Source: Acidimicrobiales bacterium
GTDB taxonomy: Bacteria > Actinomycetota > Acidimicrobiia > Acidimicrobiales > RAAP-2
Direction of reading: 5' to 3'
DNA: 64,000 nucleotides
Assembly: GCA_035547695.1 (NCBI GenBank)
Contig: DASZUK010000004.1
Location: 1,299 to 65,298 of the forward strand
In this document: piece by piece, positions 57,105 to 63,095 of the stretch
Layout: every line of letters begins with the position of its first letter
Numbering within the stretch: the stretch's first letter is position 1
Position numbers and translations under genes: made by a program
The notes under the pieces: generated by a model
Databases searched by the model: none
What the model was told of the DNA's origin: nothing
The model's input: the letters and a program-made list of their open reading frames with translations, nothing else

Positions 57105-57237
57105 ACCCGGCCGGGACCCGGCCGGCGAGGGCACGTGGCGGCCGGCCGCGGCTAACCTGCCGGCGGCGGAGCACCGTCGTCGTGGGGGCCACGGCGGGGT
57201 GCCCGCCGATCGCGGTACGGGACTCGGGGGGTCGTCA

Positions 57238-57864
57238 ATGTCCGGCAAGAAGGCGCTGTTGGCCGTCGGCGCGGCGGGGGTCGTCGGCGTCGTGGTGTCC
57301 CTGGGACTGGCCCTCGGCGCCGGTTCGACCCCGAGCGGCCGGTACACCGGCCCCACCGGGGCCAATCCCCACGGCGTCGGCTACACCTCCGGGAAGATCG
57401 TCTCCACGGTGGCCGGCAACACATCCACCGCCCAGGGGGGTGGCCAGGCTGGTGGAGGTGTCGGCGCAGCCGGGGCGGTGACATCCGGAGCGTCCGGACC
57501 CACAGCGGCCGCCGCCGGGGGAGCGGGCGTCGGCACGTCCGGCGCGGCGACACCGGGTGCCGGCGGCGGCGTTTCCGCTTCCGCCTCTGCCGCCGCCGGC
57601 CGGGGCGCGGCCTCCCTCGGTGGCGGTGCCTCGGCGTCGGGCTTCGGAGGCACAGCGACAGCGGCAGCGACCACGACAGCGGCGTCGGCATCGGCATCGG
57701 CGTCGGCCGGTGCAGCCGGCGGAGGGACCACAGCGGCGGCTGCGGCCGCCGGCGGGGCGGGGGCGACAGGAGCCGGCCTCGGCAGCAGCGGCGGCGCCGG
57801 CGGATTGGGCAGTGCCGGCGGATTGGGCAGCGCCGGCGCCACAGGGTACGGCGGCGCCGGGTAG
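57238..57864 (+). CDS. membrane-anchored Gly/Ala/Ser/Thr-rich low-complexity protein
   Basis: ATG 57238 follows GGGGGG. The N-terminal anchor is MSGKKALLAVGAAGVVGVVVSLGLALGAG. It is followed by about 170 aa of GAST-rich sequence ending in GGLGSAGGLGSAG repeats. Synonymous-type variation falls on third positions in this frame. Confidence 0.5.
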   Translation: MSGKKALLAVGAAGVVGVVVSLGLALGAGSTPSGRYTGPTGANPHGVGYTSGKIVSTVAGNTSTAQGGGQAGGGVGAAGAVTSGASGPTAAAAGGAGVGTSGAATPGAGGGVSASASAAAGRGAASLGGGASASGFGGTATAAATTTAASASASASAGAAGGGTTAAAAAAGGAGATGAGLGSSGGAGGLGSAGGLGSAGATGYGGAG

Positions 57865-57882: not shown

Positions 57883-59067
57883 TCAGCCGAGCCGGAGGGT
57901 CTCCAGCGGTTCGAGCCGGGCCGCCTTGATGGAGGGGTAGAGGCCGGCCACCACCGACACCAGCAACGCCAGGCCCATCCAGACGGGGATCTCGGCGTAG
58001 GCGATCACCACGGTCCAGCCGGCCAGGGCGGACACGCCGTAGACCACCAGGATGCCGAGCACCGCGCCGACGGCGCCGCCGAGGATGCCGATGAACAGGG
58101 ACTCCAGGAGGAACTGTGAGCCGACGGTGGAGCGGCTGTGCCCGACGGCGCGCCGGATGCCGATCTCGGAGGACCGCTGGATCACGGAGATGGACATGAC
58201 GTTGGCGATGCCGATGCCGCCGACGGTCAGCGCCAGCAGGCCGGCCAGCAGGGCGACCTCCTGCAGGGTCTTGTTGGCCTGGGCCTGGGCGGCCAGGGCG
58301 TCGCTGGGGACCTGGGTGGACACCTGCACTGTGCCGCCCAGGTTCACCGCGGTGGGGACGGCCTTGGCGGTGGCCTGGGTGGTGCCTGTGCGGGCGCGGA
58401 TGTAGAGCTGGTTCGGCCGGCCGGTGGTGCCGAGCAGGTGCTTGGCGGCCCACTCGGTGACGAAGGCGGCGTTGTCCAGTGTGGGGTCGAGCGGCACGCT
58501 GTCCAGCACGCCGACGACGCCGAAGTCCTTGCCGTTGAGCTGGATCGTCCGGGTCTCGCCGGGGAGGTAGCCGTACTGCTTGGCGATGCCCTCCCCGAGC
58601 ACCACCGAGCGGAGGTGCAGGGTTGTGTCGGCGCGGTTCAGCCACCGGCCGTCGAGCACCGGCACCCCGAGGACGGCCGGCAGGTTGTCGCCGGCGGCCC
58701 GCACCGGCACCGGGAAGGCCTGGTAGTAGCTGCTCGCTCCCTGGACCGGCAGGGCGATCACCCCGGACAGGTTCCCGGTGGCCGCCGCCGAGGTCACGGT
58801 GGAGATGTTCTCGACCCGCTCCACCGCATTGGCCGGCAGGGTGGGGTTCTGCGACCCGAAGCTGCTGCCGGCCTGGGCGATGATCAGGTTGGTGCCCAGT
58901 TGGGCCAGTTGGGCCTGCAGCGCCCCCTTCGCGCTCTCGGTCAGGCCGACCGCGCTGACCATGGCCGCCACCCCGATGACCGGCCCGAGCATGATCATCA
59001 TGGTCCGCACCTTCCGGGCCCGCAGGCCGGCCCAGGCGACGGTCGCCAGGTCCCGGGACTTGCTCAT
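57883..59067 (-). CDS. MacB/FtsX-type ABC permease with extracytoplasmic domain
   Basis: 394-aa ORF. TM1 is followed by a MacB_PCD-like loop of about 220 aa and a C-terminal FtsX 3-TM bundle (RSSEIGIRRAVGHSR). The start overlaps the ATPase gene stop as ATGA. Confidence 0.9.
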   Translation of the reverse strand: MSKSRDLATVAWAGLRARKVRTMMIMLGPVIGVAAMVSAVGLTESAKGALQAQLAQLGTNLIIAQAGSSFGSQNPTLPANAVERVENISTVTSAAATGNLSGVIALPVQGASSYYQAFPVPVRAAGDNLPAVLGVPVLDGRWLNRADTTLHLRSVVLGEGIAKQYGYLPGETRTIQLNGKDFGVVGVLDSVPLDPTLDNAAFVTEWAAKHLLGTTGRPNQLYIRARTGTTQATAKAVPTAVNLGGTVQVSTQVPSDALAAQAQANKTLQEVALLAGLLALTVGGIGIANVMSISVIQRSSEIGIRRAVGHSRSTVGSQFLLESLFIGILGGAVGAVLGILVVYGVSALAGWTVVIAYAEIPVWMGLALLVSVVAGLYPSIKAARLEPLETLRLG

Positions 59068-59831
59068 CGCCGGTCGCCTTTCCCGGCGGCGCCGGCCCGG
59101 CGCTCGTCGGCGACGATCCTCCCGTCGCGCATCGACACCTTCCGCAGCGCGGTGTCGGCGACGGTGAGGTCGTGGGTCACCATCACCACCGCCCGTTCCG
59201 GGGACTGCAGGCTCTCGAAGATCTCCAGGACGTGCGCGGCGTTGGCCGAGTCGAGGGCCCCGGTCGGCTCGTCGGCCAGGATCATCAGCGGCTCCGTCAC
59301 GATGGCCCTGGCCAGGGCCACCCGTTGCTGCTCGCCGCCCGACATCTGCACCGGCCGGTGGTCGGCCCGCTTCCCCAGGCCCAGGCGGTCCAGGGCGTCG
59401 TAGGCCCGGTCCCGGCGGTCCTTCGGCCGGATGTCCCGGTAGAGCAGGGCGGTCTCCACGTTGCCGAGCGCCGTCAGGTGGGGGATGAGGTGGAACTGCT
59501 GGAACACGAACCCGATGGCGTCCCCGCGGACCCGGGACCGGGTGGCGTCGTCCAGCCCGCTCACGTCCTGGCCGGCCACCCGGACGGTGCCCGACGTCGG
59601 GTGGTCGAGGATCCCGAGCAGGCCCAGCATGGTGGACTTTCCCGATCCCGACGGGCCCACGATGGACATGAGCTCGCCCGGGAAGATCTGCAGGGACACC
59701 TCCCGGAGGGCGTACACCTCCACCTCCTCCCCGTACACCCGGGACACCGTGTCGAGCTCCAGGAGCGGCCGGGCCGTCTCGGCGGCCAGGGTCATGTGGA
59801 CTGGCGGGGTCATGTGGACTGGCCGGGTCAT
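59064..59831 (-). CDS. MacB/LolD-type ABC ATP-binding protein
   Basis: Motifs: GPSGSGKST, MSGGEQQRVALARA and ILADEPTGALD. ATG 59831 overlaps the adaptor stop as ATGA. Two further in-frame ATGs lie 18 and 36 nt downstream, within a tandem repeat. Confidence 0.9.
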   Translation of the reverse strand: MTRPVHMTPPVHMTLAAETARPLLELDTVSRVYGEEVEVYALREVSLQIFPGELMSIVGPSGSGKSTMLGLLGILDHPTSGTVRVAGQDVSGLDDATRSRVRGDAIGFVFQQFHLIPHLTALGNVETALLYRDIRPKDRRDRAYDALDRLGLGKRADHRPVQMSGGEQQRVALARAIVTEPLMILADEPTGALDSANAAHVLEIFESLQSPERAVVMVTHDLTVADTALRKVSMRDGRIVADERRAGAAGKGDRR

Positions 59832-59842
59832 TTGGACTGGTT
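59789..59842. repeat. 18-bp tandem triplication at the adaptor-stop / ATPase-start junction
   Basis: gggtcatgtggactggc occurs at 59789 and 59807, and gggtcatttggactggt at 59825. The encoded sequence is M-TRPVH-M-TPPVH-M-T. Confidence 0.9.
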
Positions 59843-62365
59843 GGTCTGCAGGACCACGGTCTGGCCGGGGCGGAGCGCGCCGCCCTTGATCTGGATGTAG
59901 GAGCCCTCGGTCAGGCCGGTCCTGACCGGCACCGTCGTCACCCGGCCGCCCTTGGACAGGTCGATGACGCGCACCACGTCGTGGCCGGCCCCGTTCTGCA
60001 GCACGGCGGCGATCGGGACCGTCAGGGCGTCGTCGACCTGCTGGTCCACCACGTTGATGGTCACCTGCGATCCGTCGGCACCGCTGAAGTCGGAGACCTC
60101 GATGCGGCCCTCGTAGACCTGCGACGACTGCCCCCCCGAGCCCGTCGTCACTGTGGGGGTGCGGTTCAGCTCGGTGATGGTGCCGGTCCCCTGTGTGCCC
60201 TGCCCGGAGATCTGCACCGTGCAGTGCTGGCCGACCTTCAACTTGGTCCGGTCGGCCGCCGTGGCCTGCAGCGTGACGCTCAGGTTGGGCTCGGTGAGCG
60301 ACAGGATGGCGGTGCCGGCCGCCACCGGCTGGCCGGCCTTCACGTAGACCTGGCCGATGCGGATGGGCCAGTGGCCGACGATCATGTCGGTGGGCTCGAA
60401 CTGCACGTCGGTCTGCAGGGTCTGGAGGGCCACGGTGACCTGGGTCTGCCCGGCCCTCAGCAGCGCGGTGCCCGACAGCGGGACGTAGCTCTGCCCGGGC
60501 TCGGCGGTGCCCTGGGCGGTGAAGTTCACCGACGTGTCCTTCACCGGGGGCTGGCTCGCCGTGATCGTGAACGACGCCGACCCGCCCTGGGCGACGCTGG
60601 AGGTGCTCGCCGTCAGGGTCAGCGTCGGGACCACTGTCGACGTGATGGTCGCCGTCGCGCTGTTCGGTGTCCCCACCACGTAACTGCCCGAAGGCGCCAG
60701 CGCCACCGTGAGGACCCGGTCGGCCTCCACTGTGTTGCTGGTCACCGTCGGCACTGTCACCTTGAGCGCCGTCTGGCCGGCCGGGACGACGATGTTGCCC
60801 GGGGGCACCGTGTAGTCGGTTCCCCGGACCGCGGTGCCCGAGTACGAGAGGTGGACGGTGAGGGGCGTGCTGGTGGCCTTGCTGAGCCCCACCGCCAGCG
60901 TGAACGGCTGCCCCTTCTTCAGGTAGGTGGTCGGCGACTGCAGGGTGACGACCGGCTCCGCTCCGGACTCGCTGATGGTGACGACGGCCGACCCGGGGGT
61001 TGTGACGGTGTAGTTGCCCGCCGACGGGGTGACGGACACCGACAGGTACTTGTCCGGCTCGATCACTGTGGTGGCCACGGTCTGGACCGTCACCGTGGCC
61101 GACGTGCTCCCCGCCGGCAGCGTCACCACCGGGTTGACCGGGTCGTAGTCGGTCCCGGCGGTGGCGCTGCCGGTCACCGCCAATCCGACCTGCAGGTCCT
61201 GCAGCGGTGGCTGGCTCGCCGTCACCGTCAACGTGGCCGACGCCCCCGGGGTGACCGTCGTGGCCCCGGTGATGGTCAGGGCCGGCACGTTGGGGTTCTT
61301 GATCGTGGTCTCCGCGACGCCGGGGTTCCCCACGGTGTACCCGGTGCCGGCGGCGACGGAGAGCTCGATGGTGCGGTCCGGCGCCACCGCCGTGGTCACC
61401 CGGGTCTGCACCGTCACCGAGACCTGGGTCGCCCCGGCAGGCAGGGTGACCGACGTGGGGGGCGACACCACGTCCTGCGCCCCGGCCGTGCCCCCCGGGG
61501 TCAGCGACACGGTGAGCGGGTTTGTCACCGCCGCCGACGACGACACCACGAACGTCGCCGGCTGCCCCTGGGCCACCTGGTCGTCGACGGACTGGATGGT
61601 GAGCACCGGTGTCCCTGTGCTGCTGCTGGCGGTGCTGTCGGCGTACGACGCCAACGTGGCGTCGGCCCCGGCGGCCCCGGCGGCCGCCCCGGCCGCGGTC
61701 CCGACACCGGCGCCGGCGCCGGCCCCGGCGGTGCGGTCCCGGCCGGTGGCCAGTGCCGCGGTCTGCGCGGGAGGTGGCCCGATGATCAGCCCGGCGGCGT
61801 CCTGGCTGCCGACCTTGTAGCCGGTGCCCTGCTGGAGGGCCACGGTCACCGACTGCGGGGTGGCCGGGGTGGTGTTGGGGTAGTCGTGCTGGGCCTGCCA
61901 CTGGGCCAGGGCGAACTGGGTCTGCTGGTTGAAGTAGTTGTTCATCGGCCCCGGGTAGTCCCCGGCCGCGGCAAGGATCTGCTTCAACTGCAGCACGTCG
62001 GCCCCCTGGTCGCCCAGGGTGAGGGCCCGGAAGAACCGCACGGTGCCGTCCTCGGCGACGGCCGTCCGGCCGTTGAGGGCGAACATGGCGTCGCCGGCCT
62101 GGGTGGTCGACCCGTTGGTGGCGGTGACGGTGCTCACCAGTCCCTGGTTGGCCGCGTCGACGTTGCGGATCTGCTTCCGGGCCAGGGTGCCACTGAGGGT
62201 CACCGTGTCCTGGAGGGTCCTCGTCTGCACTTGACCGAACACGACGGTCTCGTTCTGCGTGCTCGTCCCCCCGGCGGTGCCGACGATGGCGTAGGCGATG
62301 CCCCCGGCTGCCAGGGCGACGACGCCCACCGCCGCCGCCAGCACCTTCTTGTTCCGCAGGTTCAC
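59828..62365 (-). CDS. membrane-fusion (HlyD/MacA-like) adaptor with PG-binding domain and four Calx-beta-like repeats
   Basis: GTG 62365 follows GGGGGG. The order is: an N-terminal TM (VLAAAVGVVALAAGGIAYAIV); PG_binding_1-like LGDQGADVLQLKQILAAAGDYPGPMNNYFNQQTQFALAQWQ; four repeats of about 108 aa (GSATAGTDYDPV...TLPAGSTSATVTVQTV...EPDKYLSVSV); and the MFP barrel-sandwich, beta-barrel and membrane-proximal end (IRIGQVYVKAGQPVAAGTAILSL ... VPVRTGLTEGSYIQIKGGALRPGQTVV). Confidence 0.85.
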   Translation of the reverse strand: MNLRNKKVLAAAVGVVALAAGGIAYAIVGTAGGTSTQNETVVFGQVQTRTLQDTVTLSGTLARKQIRNVDAANQGLVSTVTATNGSTTQAGDAMFALNGRTAVAEDGTVRFFRALTLGDQGADVLQLKQILAAAGDYPGPMNNYFNQQTQFALAQWQAQHDYPNTTPATPQSVTVALQQGTGYKVGSQDAAGLIIGPPPAQTAALATGRDRTAGAGAGAGVGTAAGAAAGAAGADATLASYADSTASSSTGTPVLTIQSVDDQVAQGQPATFVVSSSAAVTNPLTVSLTPGGTAGAQDVVSPPTSVTLPAGATQVSVTVQTRVTTAVAPDRTIELSVAAGTGYTVGNPGVAETTIKNPNVPALTITGATTVTPGASATLTVTASQPPLQDLQVGLAVTGSATAGTDYDPVNPVVTLPAGSTSATVTVQTVATTVIEPDKYLSVSVTPSAGNYTVTTPGSAVVTISESGAEPVVTLQSPTTYLKKGQPFTLAVGLSKATSTPLTVHLSYSGTAVRGTDYTVPPGNIVVPAGQTALKVTVPTVTSNTVEADRVLTVALAPSGSYVVGTPNSATATITSTVVPTLTLTASTSSVAQGGSASFTITASQPPVKDTSVNFTAQGTAEPGQSYVPLSGTALLRAGQTQVTVALQTLQTDVQFEPTDMIVGHWPIRIGQVYVKAGQPVAAGTAILSLTEPNLSVTLQATAADRTKLKVGQHCTVQISGQGTQGTGTITELNRTPTVTTGSGGQSSQVYEGRIEVSDFSGADGSQVTINVVDQQVDDALTVPIAAVLQNGAGHDVVRVIDLSKGGRVTTVPVRTGLTEGSYIQIKGGALRPGQTVVLQTNQSK

Positions 62366-62376
62366 CGGTTCCCCCC

Positions 62377-62415
62377 GTGTCGTGTTGCCGTGTCGTGTTG
62401 CCGTGTCGTGTGTGC
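62377..62415. repeat. 13-bp tandem repeat x3 immediately upstream of the adaptor start
   Basis: Units: gtgtcgtgttgcc (62377-62389), gtgtcgtgttgcc (62390-62402) and gtgtcgtgtgtgc (62403-62415). Confidence 0.9.
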
Positions 62416-62420
62416 TCGGT

Positions 62421-63095
62421 CTACGTGGCGCCGACCTTGGCCGCACAGGCCTGCAGGTCGGGGCTGGAGAGCAGGGTCTGGCCGGGCGGCGGCGTGAGCT
62501 GTGGCCCTTCACCTGTGCCGCCGAACGAGAACAGCAGGCCCTTGGCGTTCGGGGTGGGCTCCGGGATCTTCCAGCCGCGGCCGATCATGCACTTGCGCCA
62601 CTGGATATAGGCCTTGTTCTGCTTCTTGACCTGGGCCGGCGTCAGGTTGTCCTGCGAGCTCTGGGCGGCCTTGAGGGCGTTGAGGATGTTGCTCTTGCTG
62701 GCGCAGGTGGCCAGCGCCTTGACGTAGTTGGGGTCGTTCACCGGTGTGCCGGCGCCCTTGGCGTTGGGGATGCCGATGAAGGTCACCCCCATGCCGGCCA
62801 GGCAGCCCTGGAAGGAGGCCAGGGCGGTGAACAGGGCCGTCGTCGGGCTCTGCTTGGCCAGCGGGATGGTGCTGCCCACCGTCGCCGCGCCGCCGTGGCC
62901 GCTGCCGGCCGTCGGGAGGTCCGCCTGGGGGATCTGGCCCGATTCGACGAACGTGGTGCCCGCGGACGGGTCACCGCCTCCGCAACCGGCTGCCAGGCCG
63001 CCGGCGGCCAGGACCGCCATGACGGCCAGCACGACGCCACCCCGACGAACCAGTGCGCCGCGCGCCGGATTTTCGTCAGTCCCCCCCGGACGCAC
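62421..63095 (-). CDS. orphan lipoprotein, first gene of the MacB-type operon
   Basis: From GTG 63095 it reads VRPGGTDENPARGALVRRGGVVLAVMAVLAAGGLAAGC (lipobox LAAGC). The mature part has 4 further Cys and is K/N/Q-richer than its neighbours. No family was recognised. Confidence 0.62.
   Translation of the reverse strand: MRPGGTDENPARGALVRRGGVVLAVMAVLAAGGLAAGCGGGDPSAGTTFVESGQIPQADLPTAGSGHGGAATVGSTIPLAKQSPTTALFTALASFQGCLAGMGVTFIGIPNAKGAGTPVNDPNYVKALATCASKSNILNALKAAQSSQDNLTPAQVKKQNKAYIQWRKCMIGRGWKIPEPTPNAKGLLFSFGGTGEGPQLTPPPGQTLLSSPDLQACAAKVGAT

Follow-up and report, generated by a model that had tools for sequence, protein, structure and literature searches.

The adaptor gene and its insertion

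The DNA considered here is a window of 64,000 nucleotides (nt) from an Acidimicrobiales bacterium (contig DASZUK010000004.1), with a G+C content of about 72-75%. Towards one end of it lies a gene on the reverse strand for an 845-residue adaptor, or membrane fusion protein, of a predicted MacB-type ATP-binding cassette (ABC) exporter. In this protein the site of the MacA alpha-hairpin is occupied by an insertion of about 560 residues, which separates the two halves of the lipoyl domain. The insertion comprises, in order, a PG_binding_1 (peptidoglycan-binding) domain, strands F-G of a Calx-beta domain, a disordered Gly/Ala linker, three whole Calx-beta domains and strands A-E of a fourth; the junction motif and the remaining lipoyl half come next. 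The F-G piece and the incomplete last repeat probably assemble as one split Calx-beta domain, which would close the insertion into a loop. The adaptor, PG_binding_1 and Calx-beta folds are known; the probable split-domain loop in the hairpin slot is new, and the adaptor design is conserved but undescribed.

An initial annotation, made from the sequence alone, had placed a peptidoglycan-binding domain and four Calx-beta-like repeats at the hairpin position. Added to it here are the variation in repeat number and, as probable features, closure by a split domain and the loop that results. Residue numbers below refer to the 845-residue adaptor; those of the initial annotation follow an open reading frame (ORF) listed at 894 amino acids (aa; 59828-62512, reverse strand) and are higher by 49. 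The likely start of the adaptor is GTG at 62365, with GGGGGGAACC just before it, and the predicted protein then opens with a hydrophobic anchor. Features of the gene and its product are given below, with scores from hidden Markov models (HMMs) and predicted local distance difference test (pLDDT) values where they define a feature.

59828..62365, reverse strand: adaptor (membrane fusion protein) gene, 845 aa, stop codon TGA at 59828-59830; placed from the ORF, start codons and full-length homologues
62279..62347, reverse strand: N-terminal membrane anchor, residues 7-29; hydrophobic stretch KKVLAAAVGVVALAAGGIAYAIVG; helix 7-20 in the AlphaFold model
62072..62245, reverse strand: first beta-barrel strand and N-terminal lipoyl half, residues 41-98; from alignments with MacA 4dk0 and biotinyl/lipoyl domains
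61871..62026, reverse strand: PG_binding_1 domain, residues 114-165; helices 122-133 and 147-159
61781..61858, reverse strand: strands F-G of a Calx-beta domain, apart from the array, residues 170-195, sequence SVTVALQQGTGYKVGSQDAAGLIIG; proposed to complete repeat 4; repeat-HMM positions 80-105
61613..61780, reverse strand: Gly/Ala-rich low-complexity linker, residues 196-251; pLDDT below 45; simple DNA repeats at 61658-61748
61289..61612, reverse strand: Calx-beta repeat 1, complete, residues 252-359; internal-repeat HMM positions 1-107, 109 bits; pLDDT 86-90
60962..61288, reverse strand: Calx-beta repeat 2, complete, residues 360-468; HMM positions 1-108, 111.6 bits; best Pfam Calx-beta stretch
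60632..60961, reverse strand: Calx-beta repeat 3, complete, residues 469-578; HMM positions 2-108, 113.8 bits; pLDDT about 91 in both models
60386..60631, reverse strand: Calx-beta repeat 4, strands A-E only, residues 579-660; HMM positions 1-81, 72 bits
60281..60385, reverse strand: junction motif F-x-P-T-D-M-I-V-G-x-W-P-x-R-x-G and C-terminal lipoyl half, residues 661-695; Biotin_lipoyl_2 and HlyD_3 matches
59831..60280, reverse strand: beta-barrel and membrane-proximal domains, residues 696-845; TIGR01730 match; MexC-like, MexJ, MacA and AcrA structures

Adaptor identity and insertion site

The identity of the protein as an adaptor and the site of its insertion are assigned with high confidence from sequence comparison. 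The NCBIfam model RND_mfp (TIGR01730) matches residues 718-890 of the 894-aa ORF at E 2.9e-13, with a score of 49.5 bits that lies below the curated cut-off of 94.9, and the Pfam family Biotin_lipoyl_2 has a sub-threshold match at residues 719-739 of the same ORF. On the construct from which the insertion had been excised, HlyD_3 scores 37.6 bits against a cut-off of 22.2. A profile built from the window protein without residues 99-660 and from 18 diverse relatives without the equivalent stretch was also searched against the sequences of the PDB, where it matched a MexC-like adaptor (3.6e-12) as well as MexJ, MacA, AcrA, ZneB and EmrA. Positions 37-96 of this profile align with residues 5-64 of MacA from A. 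actinomycetemcomitans (4dk0), and positions 111-271 with residues 170-352. MacA thus aligns on either side of its hairpin, which therefore falls exactly at the excision point. Complete biotinyl/lipoyl domains (2d5d, 1z6h, 5gu8) align across the junction at query positions 65-126. The initial annotation had proposed both that two lipoyl halves flank the insertion and that the insertion stands where adaptors carry their hairpin; the alignment of whole lipoyl domains once the insertion is excised agrees with the former, and the MacA excision point and the unbroken alignment of BesA described below agree with the latter. By structure, Foldseek relates the non-repeat part to MacA (5nik_D), AcrA, BesA and TMexC.

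The full-length AlphaFold model has a mean pLDDT of 77.6 and a predicted template modelling score (pTM) of 0.39. Helices of at least four residues, as assigned by DSSP, are limited to the anchor (7-20), the peptidoglycan-binding domain (122-133 and 147-159) and residues 703-706. No long helix that could form a coiled-coil hairpin occurs anywhere in the adaptor in this model, so a hairpin relocated to another part of the protein is ruled out, and the absence of one, as first proposed, holds. In the junction motif, the F, P, D, P and R positions are invariant among 20 diverse members.

The peptidoglycan-binding domain had been recognized at the same residues from its sequence. Taken alone, the window protein gives a marginal Pfam match to PG_binding_1 (PF01471; 23.3-23.4 bits against a cut-off of 23, residues 169-214 of the 894-aa ORF), and 59 of 60 family members also match (best E 7e-7). 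A profile of the family additionally matches the peptidoglycan-binding domain of SleB (6tci) at E 0.0018, along with the Calx-beta domains of NCX1.

Calx-beta repeats

The beta-sandwich nature of the repeats, suggested by the initial annotation, is well founded. Calx-beta (PF03160) scores 57.6 bits on the window protein, against a cut-off of 27, and is matched by all 60 family members searched; Foldseek places the tandem Calx-beta domains (CBD12) of NCX1 and CALX among the top matches, with a probability of 1.0. A four-repeat HMM sets the borders of the complete repeats at 252-359, 360-468 and 470-578 (301-408, 409-517 and 519-627 in the earlier numbering), and with the internal-repeat HMM the match of repeat 4 ends at 660, giving 579-660 (628-709). 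These limits match those originally given for the four repeats.

Tandem Repeats Finder (TRF) reports no DNA repeat with a period near 324 nt in the adaptor gene, and the DNA of the repeats shares only patches of 60-80% identity, spaced one or two repeats apart. Comparison of repeats by position gives 56-74% identity for two close relatives, against 26-44% between positions within the window protein, and the position-matched values are lower where relatives are more distant. As had been supposed, the duplications are therefore old, and each position is individually conserved. A recent origin by slippage is ruled out by the same three observations: the TRF result, the shortness of the matching patches and the excess of position-matched over paralogous identity.

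Two regularities run through the array. Repeat types alternate, in that the closest similarity is between repeats 2 and 4 and repeats 1 and 3 also resemble each other, and junction lengths counted from the last repeat strictly alternate as well (0, 1-6, 0 and so on). The array is therefore built of two-domain units.

The region of the E-F loop (HMM positions 63-82) holds a mean of 1.4 Asp and Glu residues in the clade of the window, compared to 5.3 in distant members. At the calcium-site motif, which is DDxxxExDE-like in its canonical form, the repeats of the window read TTAVAPDRT, TTVIEPDKY and SNTVEADRV. From these residues, the canonical calcium site appears largely lost in the clade of the window and kept in distant members. 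Counted over the repeat, acidic residues number about 6 in the soil and peat clade, which includes the window, and about 15 in more distant, partly marine members.

A split fourth domain

An internal-repeat HMM of 109 positions was made from 91 complete internal repeats and scanned over 27 diverse family members. In all 27, the last repeat covers only HMM positions 1 to about 77 (strands A-E). A separate piece that follows the peptidoglycan-binding domain covers positions of about 78-106 (strands F-G) in all 27 as well, at 7.5-21 bits, and stray matches other than this piece reach at most 1 bit. In the window protein, the piece at residues 170-195 scores 11.3 bits (independent E-value 5e-4) and is modelled at a pLDDT of about 89-90 in the full-length AlphaFold model. 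The F-G strands missing from repeat 4 thus lie about 400 residues upstream of it, directly behind the peptidoglycan-binding domain. The one-to-one pattern of an F-G piece and an A-E repeat is also found in 68 of 68 complete genes from species-representative genomes. Put together, the two orphan pieces make up one domain exactly. They are most simply read as a split Calx-beta domain at the base of the insertion, which would close it there, and it is probable that the F-G piece and repeat 4 assemble in this manner.

Two details of the initial annotation change with this result. It had the Gly/Ala linker follow the peptidoglycan-binding domain directly; the linker is there, but a conserved beta-hairpin of 26 residues (170-195) stands between the two. 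It had also described repeat 4 as short, which it is (579-660), although by the HMM this is one half of a split domain rather than a plain truncation. Completion of repeat 4 from the opposite side was a further candidate, as a first alignment and a first HMM had placed WPIRIGQVYVKAG... of the C-terminal lipoyl half on strands F-G. This is ruled out because the internal-repeat HMM match stops at about position 77 and the F-G equivalent lies upstream.

In a seven-strand beta-sandwich of this type, strand A starts at one pole, and the E-F loop is found at the other, together with the terminus of strand G; the strand order in the AlphaFold model agrees with this. With the split domain formed, the linker would therefore depart from its lipoyl-proximal pole and have to extend as far as the distant end of repeat 1. 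The window protein has a linker of 57 aa. In other four-repeat proteins its length is mostly 28-35 aa, and the range for most relatives is 20-57 aa; in a 12-repeat protein it has 26 aa, so that it does not lengthen with repeat number. At about 3.5 Å per residue, a linker of this kind cannot span 4-12 domains of about 4 nm each, and the array must therefore fold back. From this we infer that the array is not a free rod but a closed loop that runs out and back, equivalent in beta-sandwich form to the alpha-hairpin.

The export module

The adaptor gene stands in a row with three others on the same strand.

59064..59831, reverse strand: ABC ATPase, MacB/LolD-like; ABC_tran 116.9 bits (Pfam) and a match to the MacB nucleotide-binding domain
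57883..59067, reverse strand: MacB-type permease with MacB_PCD and FtsX domains; 87 and 63.4 bits (Pfam), both above their cut-offs
62421..63095, reverse strand: clade-specific lipoprotein, 55 nt upstream of the adaptor gene; lipobox LAAGC; present upstream in 76 of 80 related loci

Among NCBIfam models, the ATPase is best matched by the MacB nucleotide-binding domain (E 1.1e-70) and LolD (E 1.3e-63), and the permease matches part of the MacB equivalog model (E 6.6e-34). The ATG of the ATPase gene and the stop codon of the adaptor gene overlap as ATGA, and the permease and ATPase genes overlap by 4 nt. As judged from these overlaps, the adaptor is translationally coupled to the MacB-type ATPase and the FtsX/MacB_PCD permease, and the four genes are predicted to form one MacB-type (type VII) ABC export module of lipoprotein, adaptor, ATPase and permease.

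The lipoprotein is a protein of about 200 aa with conserved cysteines in its alignment; its start is uncertain and lies at GTG 63095 or ATG 63020. Searches of Pfam, NCBIfam and PDB sequences gave no match for the window lipoprotein. Its family amounts to 487 homologue clusters; among the 120 of them listed, no Pfam domain was found, and the two listed with an organism label are both from Acidimicrobiales. As a co-inherited gene product, it is likely an accessory (fourth) component of the pump or its cargo.

Distribution and variants of the family

A homologue search in a collection of 5.8 billion proteins gave 325 matches. The 120 listed are full-length clusters with 58-100% identity, all with four repeats. 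Where labelled by NCBI they are called ‘Calx-beta domain-containing protein [Acidimicrobiales bacterium]’, and many JGI entries are labelled as AcrA-like adaptors. The junction motif, written as P[TSG]DM..[GA].WP, occurs in 248 species genomes, which is a minimum for the family. With these two sets of counts, a single or artefactual gene is ruled out.

The best 80 of the 248 were compared as related loci, and almost all of them are metagenome-assembled genomes of Acidimicrobiia from soil and peat. The ATPase gene is present in 78 of the 80, the lipoprotein gene in 76 and the permease gene in 75, with some contigs too short to hold all genes; gene order is the same where examined. Loci assigned to Burkholderiales and Mycobacterium would imply a broader taxonomic spread. 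They stand on contigs of 5.6 and 1.3 kb and are taken as mis-binned.

Repeat number varies across the family. Among the 68 complete genes, 58 encode four repeats, five encode three, three encode five and two encode two, and three-repeat forms occur in marine (Tara) Acidimicrobiaceae. Representatives at 50% identity clustering carry 2, 3, 4, 5, 6 or 12 repeats. The longest, P0121, is a protein of 1705 aa with 12 repeats, junctions of 0,3,0,3,0,3,0,3,0,2,0 residues and a closing linker of 26 aa. Its repeats are diverged, and misassembly therefore seems unlikely. In P0265 (1126 aa), an extra region lies between the first peptidoglycan-binding domain and the Calx-beta repeats; by eye, it consists of a second segment resembling a peptidoglycan-binding domain and about three beta-rich repeats of another type. 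The hairpin slot thus seems to tolerate the insertion of further domains.

Two ‘Calx-beta adaptors’ of about 350 aa, P0272 and P0292, were considered as a minimal architecture and rejected, as they are C-terminal fragments of split or truncated genes. P0292 and P0348 lie on one contig of 60,578 nt, where the C-terminal 352 aa and the N-terminal 461 aa are called as separate genes, and each of the two occurs on five contigs, which points to a frameshift, or to a gene that is truly split, in one lineage.

Relation to known adaptors and arrays

The adaptor shares its anchor, barrel, split lipoyl and membrane-proximal domains with YknX of the YknXYZ system (Bacillus subtilis and B. amyloliquefaciens), Spr0693 of the Spr0693-0695 system (Streptococcus pneumoniae) and MacA of Escherichia coli. 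As in the YknX and Spr0693 systems, it is encoded beside a separate ATPase and a MacB_PCD/FtsX permease, the ATPase being a polypeptide of its own like YknY and Spr0694. The clade-specific lipoprotein stands where YknXYZ has a fourth component such as YknW. The difference lies in the distal part: YknX, Spr0693 and MacA have a long alpha-helical hairpin that forms a tube, whereas the window adaptor has a PG_binding_1 domain and the Calx-beta loop. Purified YknX binds peptidoglycan, and the height of the adaptor matches the periplasm-like zone of Gram-positive bacteria (PMC5985334). What adaptors do in bacteria that lack an outer membrane is described in reviews as unresolved (PMC5985334; PMC4446572). 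A search of the literature found no paper on adaptors with peptidoglycan-binding or Calx-beta domains.

BesA from Borrelia burgdorferi (4kks, 4kkt, 4kku) also lacks the hairpin, and positions 28-271 of the excised profile align with BesA 16-270 in one stretch. In BesA the hairpin is simply absent, and the protein serves a resistance-nodulation-division pump with an outer-membrane channel; in the window adaptor, about 560 residues fill the slot and the pump is of the ABC type.

Other actinobacterial adaptors, known from database annotation alone, have a peptidoglycan-binding domain in the same slot. P0373, P0376 and P0377 (360-380 aa), annotated as ‘peptidoglycan-binding protein’, have only PG_binding_1 at the hairpin site and no Calx-beta domain. 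P0374 from Nonomuraea sp. H19 (575 aa), also without Calx-beta, has at this site PG_binding_1 and then a long helical stretch that resembles a coiled coil, and is a possible intermediate between the classical hairpin adaptors and the Calx-beta form. These four proteins share with the window adaptor the entry motif G-R/x...P-F/A-F/W/Y-R...G-x-D-V-x-Q-L and the order of N-terminal lipoyl half, peptidoglycan-binding domain and C-terminal lipoyl half. In comparison with the adaptors that have the peptidoglycan-binding domain only, the Acidimicrobiia family alone has the Calx-beta loop and the split domain. It looks like a peptidoglycan-binding adaptor whose hairpin slot has come to hold part of a Calx-beta array, shifted in phase.

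The repeats themselves resemble CBD1-CBD2 of NCX1 and CALX and the arrays of giant bacterial adhesins, being seven-strand beta-sandwiches in head-to-tail tandem. Unlike in those proteins, the array of the window adaptor is phase-shifted (strands F-G, n-1 whole domains, strands A-E) and sits inside another domain. With F-G first and A-E last, a repeat that normally forms rods, with its termini at opposite poles, can sit in a loop of another domain. Such a phase-shifted array is of interest for protein evolution and design.

Proposed function

Acidimicrobiia are monoderm, and an outer-membrane exit duct of the TolC type is not expected in them. By analogy with MacA, YknX and Spr0693, the adaptor would oligomerize on the MacB-type dimer, and its peptidoglycan-binding domains would fasten the upper side of the ring to the peptidoglycan. 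The loops of Calx-beta domains may then project into the wall as a spacer or as the lining of an exit path, and how far they reach would depend on how many two-domain units they contain (2 to 12 repeats in the family). Such a wall-anchored exit role is offered as a tentative proposal. More speculative, and on balance doubtful, is a version in which the six peptidoglycan-anchored Calx-beta loops of a hexamer form a chimney through the peptidoglycan, its length tuned by two-domain units and the split domain at its base, in replacement of both the hairpin tube and TolC.

The family amounts to a natural experiment. A whole class of Actinomycetota has given up the hairpin, has a peptidoglycan-binding domain and a beta-sandwich loop of variable length instead, and has kept the domains that contact the pump. 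This argues that the cell wall, and not a second membrane, is what the distal part of the adaptor deals with, and makes the idea of a wall role for monoderm adaptors testable.

Alternative arrangements

The overall anatomy given above is likely, though several points weigh against it. Contact between the F-G piece and repeat 4 is inferred and not seen directly. The lipoyl domain and the junction have pLDDT values of 42-60, which, with the pTM of 0.39, leaves the inter-domain geometry unfixed by the model. The PG_binding_1 score of the window protein sits right at its threshold, and calcium-dependent rigidity of the array may not apply in the clade of the window. Support from a modelled fragment that starts at repeat 3 is indirect: repeat 3 stays at a pLDDT of about 91 and repeat 4 drops to about 64, from about 85 in the full model, but the fragment model used a shallower alignment (24 sequences versus 60), and repeat 4 keeps its DSSP strand assignments in it. 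Values are also lower in the fragment for the barrel and the membrane-proximal domain, to which N-terminal strands contribute as well. One could envisage an array that is tethered at both ends and unclosed, with the 170-195 hairpin vestigial or part of the peptidoglycan-binding module and a truncated repeat 4 packed on the lipoyl domain and the junction. The indirect evidence for the contact and the strands that repeat 4 retains without the N-terminus would agree with this, and the conserved F-x-P-T-D-M...W-P junction could itself cap repeat 4. Such an arrangement is nevertheless rather unlikely, given that the two pieces cover HMM positions of about 1-77 and 78-106 almost without overlap or gap, that 95 of 95 proteins have one of each, independent of repeat number, that the hairpin reaches a pLDDT of about 90 in the full model, and that repeat 4, unlike repeat 3, loses confidence without the N-terminal part. 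The array can also be imagined as a straight ruler, in which four Calx-beta domains form a rod of about 17 nm across the peptidoglycan and repeat number is matched to wall thickness. This is what the initial annotation implied when it proposed to measure the extended module against the wall. The range of 2 to 12 repeats across the family, the zero-residue junctions within two-domain units, which suggest rigid pairs, and the elongated shape of tandem Calx-beta domains in NCX1 and CALX all speak for it. Yet the insertion is anchored at both ends in one lipoyl domain, and the return linker is too short (26 aa for 12 repeats) if the split domain forms, which makes the ruler improbable. As a closed loop, the module would not simply be measurable as an extended rod against wall thickness.

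Export itself could also be secondary, with the array serving mainly to bind calcium, polysaccharide or matrix as a surface scaffold or adhesin and the adaptor fold serving only as its anchor in membrane and wall. The repeats also match thousands of giant Calx-beta proteins of 2,000-7,500 aa, and three of 60 family members have weak matches to a carbohydrate-binding module (CBM_4_9). Against a scaffold or adhesin stand the translational coupling of the adaptor gene to the ATPase and permease genes, which are present in 78 and 75 of the 80 loci, and the good conservation of the transporter-contacting barrel and membrane-proximal domains. The array, moreover, would lie buried close to the membrane as a short closed loop and not as a long distal stalk, and most acidic residues of the calcium site are lost in the clade of the window. 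A scaffold or adhesin is therefore very improbable, and an adaptor with a wall-directed loop closed by the split domain is preferred to it.

Further observations at the locus

Most of the 55-nt gap between the stop codon of the lipoprotein gene and the start of the adaptor gene is occupied by a perfect 13-nt tandem repeat of 2.8 copies (62375-62411), which reads CCGTGTCGTGTTG on the forward strand and CAACACGACACGG on the coding strand. It may act as a regulatory site or have arisen by slippage. A second short tandem repeat, of 18 nt and 2.3 copies, lies at the start of the ATPase gene (window positions 59800-59840). It encodes MTRPVH-MTPPVH-MT and provides in-frame ATG codons at 59831, 59813 and 59795, the first of which overlaps the adaptor stop codon.

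An ORF on the forward strand (57199-57864), which converges on the permease gene, encodes 221 aa, with one N-terminal hydrophobic segment and then a tail extremely rich in Gly, Ala, Ser and Thr. It gave no family match. A similar low-complexity ORF is found at the same relative place in the related locus L001 (12614-13264).

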